Shown piece after piece: positions 26,227-29,200 of a stretch of DNA of 64,000 nt. This stretch comes from Oscillospiraceae bacterium. GTDB taxonomy: Bacteria > Bacillota > Clostridia > Oscillospirales > UBA929. Under the pieces are notes generated by a model. That model saw nothing but the letters and a program-made list of their open reading frames with translations. It did no database searches and had not been told where the DNA came from. The first letter of the stretch is position 1. Each line of letters starts with the position of its first letter. A program made the position numbers and the translations under genes. The DNA lies in the NCBI GenBank assembly GCA_031254575.1, contig JAIRUE010000039.1:6793-70792 (forward strand), given 5' to 3'.

Positions 26227-29200
26227 GTGTCCGTAATAGGTATGATGAAAGATAACACCGCAAACCGGGGCTCCCGAACCGTCCAGCTTTCTCTAAGGAG
26301 GAGGTTCGCGGTTTTTTCCGCCGTATTGTTTCTGCTCATTGTAACGATAGGGAGCGCCGCCTTTACATTTTCCATGCGGCAAATCGTCAAAGAAAACAAA
26401 GACAACGAAGTGCGCCGGATATTGGAAATTGAACGGATCAAACTGGAAAACTCACTGAACAGCGAGATTGCCATCGCGTTGAAAATGGCGGATTCCCCTC
26501 TGATCAGGCAGTATTTTGAAGCCCCCGGCGACGCTGTGCTGAGAGAGATAGTCTTTGCGGAAATAGGCGCGTACCGCCGGGCTTTTACGGCGCAAACGGT
26601 TTTCTGGATAAACGACATAGACAAAATGTTTTATTTTAACGATACCGCCCCCTATTTACTTGACCCGGAGAATCCCGAGAACTATTGGTATTCAATGACT
26701 CTTTACGGAACGGAGCCGTATAATTTTAACATCAATTACAACCCTGACCTGAACATAACCAATCTGTGGGTAAACGCGCCGGTTTATAGTGATAACGGCA
26801 AGCCGGTCGGCATGATCGGGACAGGGATTGATCTCTCGACATTTCTGGAAATGGTGTATAGGGACGCCGCGGGGCAGGCGGATATTTATTTTTTTAACGC
26901 CGCGGGGGAGATCACCGGAGCCAAAGACGCCGCGCTGGTGGCCGGGAAAAACCAAATCGGCGAACGATTCAGCAATACGGACCAAAGCATTATATCCATT
27001 GTGAAAAGCCTTGAACCGGGGCAGATTCATACGCTGGATTCTCCGCACGGAAAGATCGCGCTGGGGGCGGTTCCGCTGCTGGAATGGTACGCTATGGCCG
27101 TCATAGCGGACAGCGCAGACGATTATTACAACGCCATGACGACGCTGTTTCTCGTCATGCTTGTCATCATCGCGATCGTTTTTATCCTGTGCAACGCGGT
27201 TATCGCCAATCTTCTGAGACCTCTGCGAAAGGCAATGGCGGAGACGGAGGCCTCTTTCCTTGTCGCGGAATATGACATCATGAAATACAGGCTGATCAGC
27301 GACTCGTTAAGCATTGCTCACTGGGATATGGAAATCATGGTGGCGGACGATCCGGCCGGCCCGGAAAACTCTTTTAAGTGGTCGGACGAGTTCCGCCGCA
27401 TGCTCGGCTATTCCGACGGGTATGACTTCCCGGATACCCTCAACAGCTGGACCGGACGCCTTCACCCTGAGGACAAGGAGAGGACGCTCACCGCCTTCAT
27501 GGCGCATATCGGCGACAGAACCGGGAAAACGCCGTATGACCTGGAATACCGCCTGATGCTGAAAAACGGGACATACCGGTATTTTCACGCGTTTGGCTCC
27601 ACGATGCGGGACACCGCGGGCGCGCCGCTGCGGATGGCCGGCGCGATGCGGGACATAACCGACCGGAAACTGATTGAGGCGGAGCTTGCAGGGGAATACG
27701 CGAAAAACAAAGCCGCGGCCCATTGGTATAAATCCATACTCGACGCGATACCTCTACCCATCAGTGTAACCGACACGAGTATGAACTGGACGTTTGTCAA
27801 TAAGGCTGTGGAAGATTTTTTAGGGACGAAGCGGGGGGAAATGATAGGCAAGCCTTGCGGCAACTGGAACGCCCATATATGCAATACGCGGGACTGCGGC
27901 GTGGCCTGCGCGAAACGCGGCCTGATGCGCACGTTTTTCACGCATGCGGAATCGTCTTATCAGGTTGACGTTGAAATACTGAAGGATCTGAAAGGTGAAA
28001 CGGCCGGATATATCGAGATTGTACAGGATATTACAAAAATCGAGGCGATGGCAAGGGAGCAGGCCGAAGCGGAAAACAAAGCGAAATCCTTGTTCCTAGC
28101 CTCCATGAGCCATGAGATCAGGACGCCGATCAACGCGATTATCGGCATGACGGCAATCGGGAAAAATTCGGGGGAAACAGACCGGAAGGACTACGCGCTG
28201 AATAGAATTGAAGAAGCCTCGTCACATCTTCTAGGCGTAATCAACGATATACTCGATATGTCAAAAATCGAGGCGGACAAACTGGAGTTATCGCCTGTTG
28301 AGTTTGATCTTGAGAGCATGATTCAAAAGGCGGTCACAGTCATCAGTTTTCGCGTGGAAGAAAAACGGCAGCGGTTTACCGTGGATGTCGACAGTAAACT
28401 GCCGCGCTTTATAATCGGCGACGACCAGCGGCTTACGCAAGTTATCGTGAACCTGCTGTCCAACGCGGTCAAGTTCACGCCCGAAGGGGGCGAAATCCGG
28501 CTTGGCATATCTTTGGTATCGGAAAACGACGGGATATGCGAGCTGCGTATCGAGGTAGCCGACAATGGGATCGGGATGTCGTCCGAACAACAGGAGAAAC
28601 TGTTCCACGCTTTTGCGCAGGCGGACATCGGTATCAGCCGCGAGTACGGCGGCACGGGGTTGGGTCTCGCCATATCAAAACGCATTGTTGAACTCATGGA
28701 CGGCGAGATCCTTGTTGAGTCGGAGTTCGGCCGGGGTACACGTTTCACTGTCACCGTCAAAGCGCGGATGGGAACAACCGGTCCGTCGTTATCGGAAGCC
28801 TTTGACGCCGGTTCGGAAGATGTGCGGCTGCGGGAAGACGCGCCCGATATAAGGAAGGGTATGTTTGAGGGTAAAACCCTGTTGCTTGCCGAGGATATTG
28901 AGATCAACCGCGAAATCATTATGACGCTGCTAGAGGATACGGGGCTGACCATTGATTGCGCCGAAAACGGTAAAGAGGCGCTCGATATGATAGCGGCGGC
29001 TCCCGGCAGATACGATATTGTGTTTATGGATATGCAGATGCCGCAAATGGACGGACTGGAGGCGGCGCGGCGCATACGCGCTCTGCCCGCTCCGCGGGGC
29101 GTCGCGCTGCCGATCATAGCGATGACCGCGAACGTATTCAAAGACGATATTGAGAATTGCCTTGCCGCGGGCATGGACGACCATATTGGAAAGCCGGTCG

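Follow-up and report, generated by a model that had tools for sequence, protein, structure and literature searches.

A cysteine-rich PAS domain in two hybrid histidine kinases of an Oscillospiraceae bacterium: a candidate OrpR-like iron-sulfur sensor module

Background

Few PAS domains that sense through an iron-sulfur (Fe-S) cluster have been studied (NreB and OrpR), and oxygen and redox sensing in strict anaerobes, whether for taxis or for the control of genes, is poorly understood. OrpR (DVU2106) is a sigma54 enhancer-binding protein of Desulfovibrio (Nitratidesulfovibrio) vulgaris Hildenborough in whose N-terminal PAS domain three cysteines, C52, C61 and C65 (CX8CX3C), are fully conserved; the anaerobically purified protein gives [4Fe-4S]2+ spectra, a mild oxidant converts the cluster to [3Fe-4S]1+, and the triple Cys-to-Ser mutant has no redox sensing (PMC8359166). 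In this report we describe a PAS domain with a C-x7-C-x4-C-x3-C cysteine cluster, hereafter the Cys-PAS, found in two hybrid histidine kinases (kinases 2 and 3) of an Oscillospiraceae bacterium. Both are encoded in a stretch of 64,000 nucleotides (nt) of contig JAIRUE010000039.1 (positions 6,793 to 70,792, assembly GCA_031254575.1), which as a whole is referred to as the window. On profile and alignment comparison the Cys-PAS is remotely homologous to the PAS domain of OrpR, and it probably holds an Fe-S cluster as well.

NreB, the other system of this kind, exists in two forms. In S. carnosus NreB the arrangement is CX2CX11CX2C with a [4Fe-4S] cluster, and in B. licheniformis NreB it is CX2CX11C with a [2Fe-2S] cluster and an additional labile sulfur ligand. 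The B. licheniformis cluster senses sulfide by means of an open coordination position; the two NreB PAS types are described as unrelated to each other (PMC13478379).

Results

Two hybrid kinases of the window share the cysteine cluster

The following features, all on the forward (+) strand, carry the account below.

26227..29256, +: hybrid sensor kinase 2, 1009 amino acids (aa); 1004 aa in the public database, where ATG 26242 is taken as the start
27712..28062, +: Cys-PAS domain of kinase 2 (aa 496-612), candidate OrpR-like Fe-S sensor module
27856..27909, +: Cys cluster of kinase 2, C544-x7-C552-x4-C557-x3-C561, in which C544/C552/C557 form the invariant triad and C561 is at the variable position of the putative fourth ligand (profile position 66)
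28027..28035, +: D-I-T motif of kinase 2 (aa 601-603), the C-terminal end of the PAS domain, followed by the helical linker to the H-box
28111-28113, +: H-box His629 of kinase 2
58410..61133, +: hybrid sensor kinase 3, 907 aa
59604..59954, +: Cys-PAS domain of kinase 3 (aa 399-515), 54% identical to that of kinase 2
59748..59801, +: Cys cluster of kinase 3, C447-x7-C455-x4-C460-x3-C464

Translation of the two clusters gives CGNWNAHICNTRDCGVAC (27856-27909, kinase 2) and CKSWDIDICGTGNCAITC (59748-59801, kinase 3), both with the spacing C-x7-C-x4-C-x3-C, which confirms the motif that the initial annotation had placed in kinase 2 and its identical spacing in kinase 3. When all six frames of the window were scanned for this motif class, kinases 2 and 3 were its only occurrences in real genes, and 4 of the 8 cysteines among the 1009 residues of kinase 2 are inside the 18-residue motif stretch. 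Both clusters are situated within a Pfam PAS_4/PAS_9 domain immediately N-terminal of HisKA, and the PAS superfamily models that match the Cys-PAS are PAS_4 (44.4 bits; aa 505-604 in kinase 2), PAS, PAS_9 and TIGR00229. Two candidates were set aside here: an antisense open reading frame (ORF) at 27585-27941 was rejected as a gene, the strong homology being in the sense frame and nothing supporting the antisense one, and heme c attachment was rejected because the CXXCH motif is absent.

Both proteins are hybrid histidine kinases, with H629 and D935 in kinase 2 and H534 and D836 in kinase 3, and the kinase core of each is HisKA (PF00512). In kinase 2 a transmembrane segment (aa 27-50), a Cache-like extracytoplasmic domain and a second transmembrane segment (aa 303-322) are followed by PAS_3 (aa 384-473), the Cys-PAS, HisKA, HATPase_c and REC, each of the last three in the order that Pfam also gives for kinase 3 (dCache_3, HAMP, Cys-PAS, HisKA, HATPase_c, REC). 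The two are 55% identical across the entire cytoplasmic part of about 515 aa (27700-29253 against 59592-61130), comprising Cys-PAS, HisKA, HATPase and REC. Their N-terminal sensors gave a best BLASTP E value of 0.018, which bears out the earlier statement that these are unrelated, though both are of the Cache type (dCache_1, weak, and dCache_3). Kinases 2 and 3 thus look like paralogues with exchanged sensor domains. Since they are alike over the whole cytoplasmic part, comparison within the window does not by itself set the PAS domain apart from the rest, and the view of the Cys-PAS as a conserved module, which had been drawn from this pair, finds its support in the wider family instead, where the module is portable as well.

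A third hybrid kinase of the window (21699-25586; 4HB_MCP, GAF, PAS, HisKA, HATPase and two REC domains) does not have the Cys motif. Its gene comes right before a nitroreductase-family gene (25519-26169), which in turn is followed by kinase 2.

A widespread family with an invariant triad and a movable fourth position

An exhaustive profile search seeded with the two window PAS domains, whose counts are cluster representatives, gave 8,238 matches at E<=1e-3, 1,333 at E<=1e-10 and 384 at E<=1e-30, and in many of the matching proteins the domain is repeated in tandem, 2-5 times. The motif, for which a search of the protein databases had been recommended earlier, is therefore widespread and goes without specific annotation: neither Pfam nor NCBIfam holds a model specific to the Cys-PAS family, the source annotations of members read merely "PAS domain S-box-containing protein" or "methyl-accepting chemotaxis protein", and searches of the literature on the CX7CX4C motif, on four-Cys or zinc PAS domains and on Fe-S PAS domains in chemoreceptors turned up no account of the family.

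Conservation was assessed in 236 full-length domain copies taken from the top 150 proteins. Cysteines at profile positions 49, 57 and 62 (C-x7-C-x4-C) are present in every one of these copies (236/236), as they are in all copies of a second, independent set derived from genomes (101/101), and in a further independent genome set, of a divergent subfamily with the spacing C-x8-C-x4-C, the triad is found in 114/115 copies. The fourth Cys of the window motif, at position 66, is present in 38% of the 236 copies, while other copies have a Cys at position 83 (23%), 79 (12%) or 64 (7%); the triad cysteines are the only ones in 47/236, and 67/236 have no Cys at the six usual fourth-ligand positions (20-28%). 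In the second set (101 copies) the fourth Cys occurs in about 82% of copies, so that its frequency ranges over 38-82% depending on the set. Besides the cysteines, D21, N30, G46, T59, G99, E102 and the C-terminal D-I-T are near-invariant (D106 in 93% of copies, T or S at position 108 in 100%).

Copies without a fourth Cys are enriched in a histidine at position 100 on strand I-beta (38/67 against 23/169, Fisher p = 9e-11, phylogeny uncorrected), and those with C83 have H18, A52, W78 and Q85 in co-occurrence, again uncorrected for phylogeny. The existence of fourth-ligand classes with correlated residue sets suggests distinct cofactor environments within one family. In these alignments the conserved unit is Cys3 (C-x7-C-x4-C) with a putative fourth ligand that has repeatedly been relocated. 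Fe-S sites commonly combine a fixed Cys3 with a fourth ligand that can move.

The initial annotation had taken all four cysteines as the conserved unit and had named their lack of conservation in orthologues as evidence that would refute an Fe-S or metal-binding sensor. Only its first three cysteines belong to such a unit, and the lack of conservation is confined to the fourth; as the three others are invariant, the loss of the fourth refines the Fe-S hypothesis and does not refute it.

One member departs from this pattern altogether: residues 32-133 of P0132 score 60.6 bits against the family with the Cys loop wholly lost (GKYRNTLKDGQSSQGNGQTLCEF), and this domain looks, from its sequence, like a natural cofactor-less derivative.

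Homology to the PAS domain of OrpR

OrpR orthologues were located by a genome scan for the published operator GGGCGYRTTTTGCGCCC, most of whose 120 matches are chance occurrences; in two Desulfovibrionaceae loci (L190 and L212) the operator is found 80-135 nt upstream of a PAS-AAA+ gene. The Nitratidesulfovibrio orthologue matches the published OrpR numbering exactly (C52, D54, C61 and C65) and has C70 in addition. Against the hidden Markov model (HMM) of the Cys-PAS family the two orthologues score 53.7 and 34.5 bits, whereas among 49 triad-less PAS domains the median score is 12.9 bits and the 90th percentile 24 bits. Alignment of the family with the OrpR PAS domain by hhalign has a probability of 98.3% (E 1.7e-14), and the kinase 2 PAS domain finds the Desulfovibrio OrpR PAS domain by BLASTP with E 4e-10. 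Both HMMER and MAFFT place family positions 49, 57 and 62 on C52, C61 and C65 of OrpR, with one residue inserted ahead of the second Cys and one deleted behind it, and the C-x8-C-x4-C spacing of the divergent subfamily is intermediate between the window motif and the CX8CX3C of OrpR. Taken on these comparisons, the relationship goes beyond generic PAS similarity.

The two have in common a PAS domain with a three-Cys triad in the E-alpha/F-alpha region and anaerobic hosts, and the further Cys of the OrpR orthologues (C70) falls near family position 66. They differ in spacing (CX8CX3C(X4C) in OrpR, CX7CX4C(X3C) in the window family), in D/E54 of OrpR, which is not conserved in the window family, and in output, which is an AAA+ sigma54 activator in OrpR but a hybrid histidine kinase in the window and a chemoreceptor elsewhere; the cofactor, moreover, is established for OrpR only. 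No GAFTGA motif, the mark of sigma54 activators, was found in the top 150 proteins or in the scanned ORFs of the divergent subfamily, and sigma54 output is a trait of the OrpR protein and not of the OrpR PAS domain. The Fe-S PAS sensor is a known kind of sensor, represented by OrpR, and the Cys-PAS would be a form of it in which the Cys spacing is shifted, the fourth ligand is movable and the output is a hybrid kinase in the window and a chemoreceptor elsewhere.

Comparison with NreB and with heme and flavin PAS sensors

NreB, like the window proteins, is a histidine kinase with a cytoplasmic PAS domain, and it holds its Fe-S cluster via three or four Cys and senses O2 or sulfide. However, its Cys spacing is unrelated, sequence similarity was not detected in a search of the Protein Data Bank (PDB), and it has a HisKA_3 core and no membrane sensor. 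Membership of the NreB type was consequently rejected on the spacing (CX7CX4CX3C against CX2CX11C(X2C)) and on the kinase core (HisKA, PF00512, against HisKA_3). NreB, which had been put forward as the established precedent, retains its value as a functional analogue but not as a homologue, and it is OrpR that provides the homologous precedent.

Heme and flavin PAS sensors (Aer2, FixL/DosP, NifL, LOV) have the same fold and the same cofactor pocket, and many family members are, like Aer2, soluble poly-HAMP chemoreceptors. Yet the Cys-PAS family has neither the heme-ligating His nor the flavin-binding residues, and these sensors for their part lack the Cys triad.

Predicted fold

An AlphaFold2 model built on an alignment of 91 sequences has canonical PAS topology with a mean predicted local distance difference test score of 96.1. 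In this model C49 opens helix E-alpha and C57 belongs to the E-F loop, while helix F-alpha bears C62 and C66 and also position 64; the other alternative ligand positions (79, 83 and 100) are distributed over the G-H turn and strands H-beta and I-beta. The triad and these fourth-ligand positions line the usual PAS cofactor cavity of the model. The G-x-x-C context of C49 is like that of the flavin cysteine of LOV domains.

Foldseek searches with the model returned PAS domains only (a WalK model at the top; LOV, NifL, Aer2 and DosP) at 11-20% identity. Nothing significant was matched among PDB sequences, so that no solved relative of the Cys-PAS was found there. In that search the Cys loop (query residues 58-90) was also aligned to the 24-kDa [2Fe-2S] subunit of complex I (KPMGKYNVQVCTTTPCQLCGSDGIM) with an E value of 0.9, a resemblance that we regard as chance.

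Hosts and protein architectures

Host range was read from the best 80 matches of each genome scan, 160 loci in all, and anaerobic lineages account for all 160. Termite-gut metagenome-assembled genomes are the nearest relatives of the window kinases and make up most of the relatives close to the window domains (Treponema, Oscillospiraceae, Lachnospiraceae, Peptococcaceae, Synergistaceae, Coriobacteriia, Fibrobacterota, Defluviitaleaceae), to which Methanomassiliicoccales, Ignavibacteria and Pararhodospirillum can be added. The divergent subfamily is hosted by Methanosarcinaceae, Methanolobus, Geobacter, Geomonas, Desulfovibrionaceae, Desulfosporosinus, Acetobacterium and purple sulfur bacteria. 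Among relatives of the kinase core in aerobic Betaproteobacteria and Dyadobacter, none has the Cys-PAS domain.

The top 150 proteins comprise about 61 histidine kinases, about 60 methyl-accepting chemotaxis proteins and a few GGDEF proteins. Many of these chemoreceptors have poly-HAMP arrays, and there are 1-5 tandem Cys-PAS copies per protein. Such kinase and chemoreceptor architectures fit a taxis or redox input module. The members of the divergent subfamily, C-x8-C-x4-C(-x-C), at loci L280-L359 are mostly chemoreceptors too, in sulfate and metal reducers, methanogens and purple sulfur bacteria (for example L281 of Methanolobus, L297 of Geomonas and L319 of Desulfosporosinus).

Discussion

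The Cys-PAS as a putative Fe-S redox sensor

We consider it probable that the Cys-PAS is an OrpR-type domain with an Fe-S cluster in the PAS pocket that serves in redox or O2 sensing. An Fe-S cluster, which the initial annotation had favoured, is the best-supported candidate for the cofactor, through the homology with the OrpR PAS domain and the alignment of the two triads. Because the family is related to a PAS domain that holds such a cluster, redox state or oxygen is most likely what is sensed.

The ligands would be the invariant triad (C544/C552/C557 of kinase 2, C447/C455/C460 of kinase 3), with C561 or C464, one helical turn further along F-alpha, as the variable fourth ligand. By analogy with OrpR the cluster may be of the [4Fe-4S]2+ type, [2Fe-2S] being another candidate, and NO, sulfide and iron status are further candidate signals. 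In the reducing, anoxic state the cluster would be intact, and oxidants, O2 or possibly another small molecule that attacks Fe-S clusters would convert or destroy it, as OrpR suggests. From what is general in PAS-kinase signalling, the change in the cluster may then rearrange E-alpha/F-alpha and travel by way of the beta-sheet, the D-I-T motif and the helical linker as far as the DHp histidine (H629 or H534), where it would reset the balance of autokinase and phosphatase activities. Each kinase could in this manner integrate an extracytoplasmic Cache input with the redox state of the cytoplasm before it passes the phosphoryl group to its own REC domain.

Several observations weigh against this proposal. 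The assignment in OrpR itself is spectroscopic, with 0.3-0.5 cluster per chain and without a structure (PMC8359166). The OrpR PAS domain is only 19-26% identical to the family, the orthologue nearest to the studied protein is the one that scores only 34.5 bits, and the Cys spacing of the two is off by one residue on each side of the second Cys. The hhalign score is partly generic, PAS domains being alike in general, and the restriction to anaerobes, read as it is from the best 80 matches per scan, may partly reflect ancestry and sampling. Finally, Cys4 and Cys3His are classic ligand sets for zinc, which brings us to the alternatives.

Zinc and the neighbouring ZIP transporter gene

The zinc alternative holds that the cysteines bind a structural or regulatory Zn, as Zn(Cys)3-4 or Zn(Cys)3His, which would either stiffen the E-alpha/F-alpha loop or report how much zinc is available, with the product of the adjacent ZIP gene as the target. 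This gene is the following.

29405-30193, +: ZIP-family transporter (PF02535), ATG at 29405

It was indeed found, as reported before, in the same direction as kinase 2 and 148 nt past its stop, and there is no terminator-like site between the two. In many copies H100 replaces the fourth Cys, as a Zn(Cys)3His site would have it, and a passage of PMC10468136 cites the cytoplasmic PAS domain of S. aureus WalK as binding zinc. WalK resembles the window kinases in that its cytoplasmic PAS domain adjoins the kinase core and metal binding there tunes kinase activity, and its model was the top Foldseek match. But this match reflects the generic PAS fold at 14% identity, and WalK is without the Cys loop. 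Its zinc ligands are reportedly His, Asp and Glu, not Cys.

In the flanks of related loci a tblastn search detected a ZIP homologue beside 0/159, and kinase 3 has no ZIP neighbour either; as the adjacency is not conserved, the proximity of kinase 2 and the ZIP gene looks incidental, the functional link between the two was rejected, and the lead towards zinc that had been drawn from this neighbour is a weak one. CxxC pairs are absent from the motif, a fourth ligand that changes place between helix and sheet is rare at structural zinc sites, a zinc site would not be expected to be confined to anaerobes, and the OrpR domain, which is homologous, is brown on purification and gives Fe-S spectra. 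We regard zinc as an unlikely, though the foremost, alternative to the Fe-S cluster.

Other ligands and a thiol switch

A second alternative, which we consider very improbable, is that the Cys3 site binds another thiophile (Cu(I), As(III), Cd or Hg), or that an Fe-S cluster is present but senses NO or sulfide instead of O2 or redox state. Trigonal Cys3 sites do bind soft metals, and the three-Cys [2Fe-2S] domain of B. licheniformis NreB senses sulfide (PMC13478379), a fourth Cys being likewise missing from 20-28% of the 236 family copies. A sensor of toxic metals, however, would not be expected to occur in chemoreceptors and kinases by the thousand, with 1-5 copies in each protein, and metal-resistance genes are not linked; the NO or sulfide variant, for its part, is a sub-case of the Fe-S explanation and inseparable from it here. 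Least probable of all is a metal-free thiol redox switch, in which a disulfide, persulfide or S-nitrosothiol alters the PAS conformation: such switches are common in redox sensors and the cysteines are clustered in the sensor domain of organisms that face redox swings, yet one or two Cys would suffice for them and the OrpR homologue carries a cluster, while a triad invariant at fixed spacing with a compensating fourth ligand, His included, indicates coordination chemistry.

Other genes of the window

Two giant adjacent ORFs occupy 44190-49487 (1765 aa, no Pfam match) and 49459-54300 (1613 aa, YDG and S-layer homology domains), and the product of the latter is probably a cell-surface protein of the Bacillota host. 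Elsewhere in the window, at 33603-36111, 41813-43744, 57193-58266 and 62244-63236, two tandem beta-lactamase-fold genes, a GH127 gene, a CE2/GDSL esterase gene and a GH5 gene were found. This gene context fits a plant-fibre-degrading anaerobe.

Meaning of the family

Perhaps, and this broader idea we put forward only tentatively, the Cys-PAS domains constitute a very large unnamed Fe-S PAS family that would be a main cytoplasmic input of redox state or O2 (or of NO or sulfide) for chemotaxis and two-component signalling in strict anaerobes, bacteria and archaea alike. What each copy senses might then depend on its fourth ligand, whether a Cys of F-alpha, a Cys of H-beta, a His of I-beta or none at all, which would govern the kind of cluster, its redox potential or the presence of an open iron site, and tandem arrays of up to five domains might give graded or multi-signal responses.

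If the cluster is bound, a signal can be predicted for chemoreceptors and kinases in their thousands, in gut and sediment organisms and in methanogens, and the fourth ligand, varied as it is in nature, would offer a ready series for learning how sensing depends on Fe-S coordination. With so many members, all of its best matches in anaerobes, no annotation of its own and such variation in its ligands, the Cys-PAS family is a worthwhile target for experiment.

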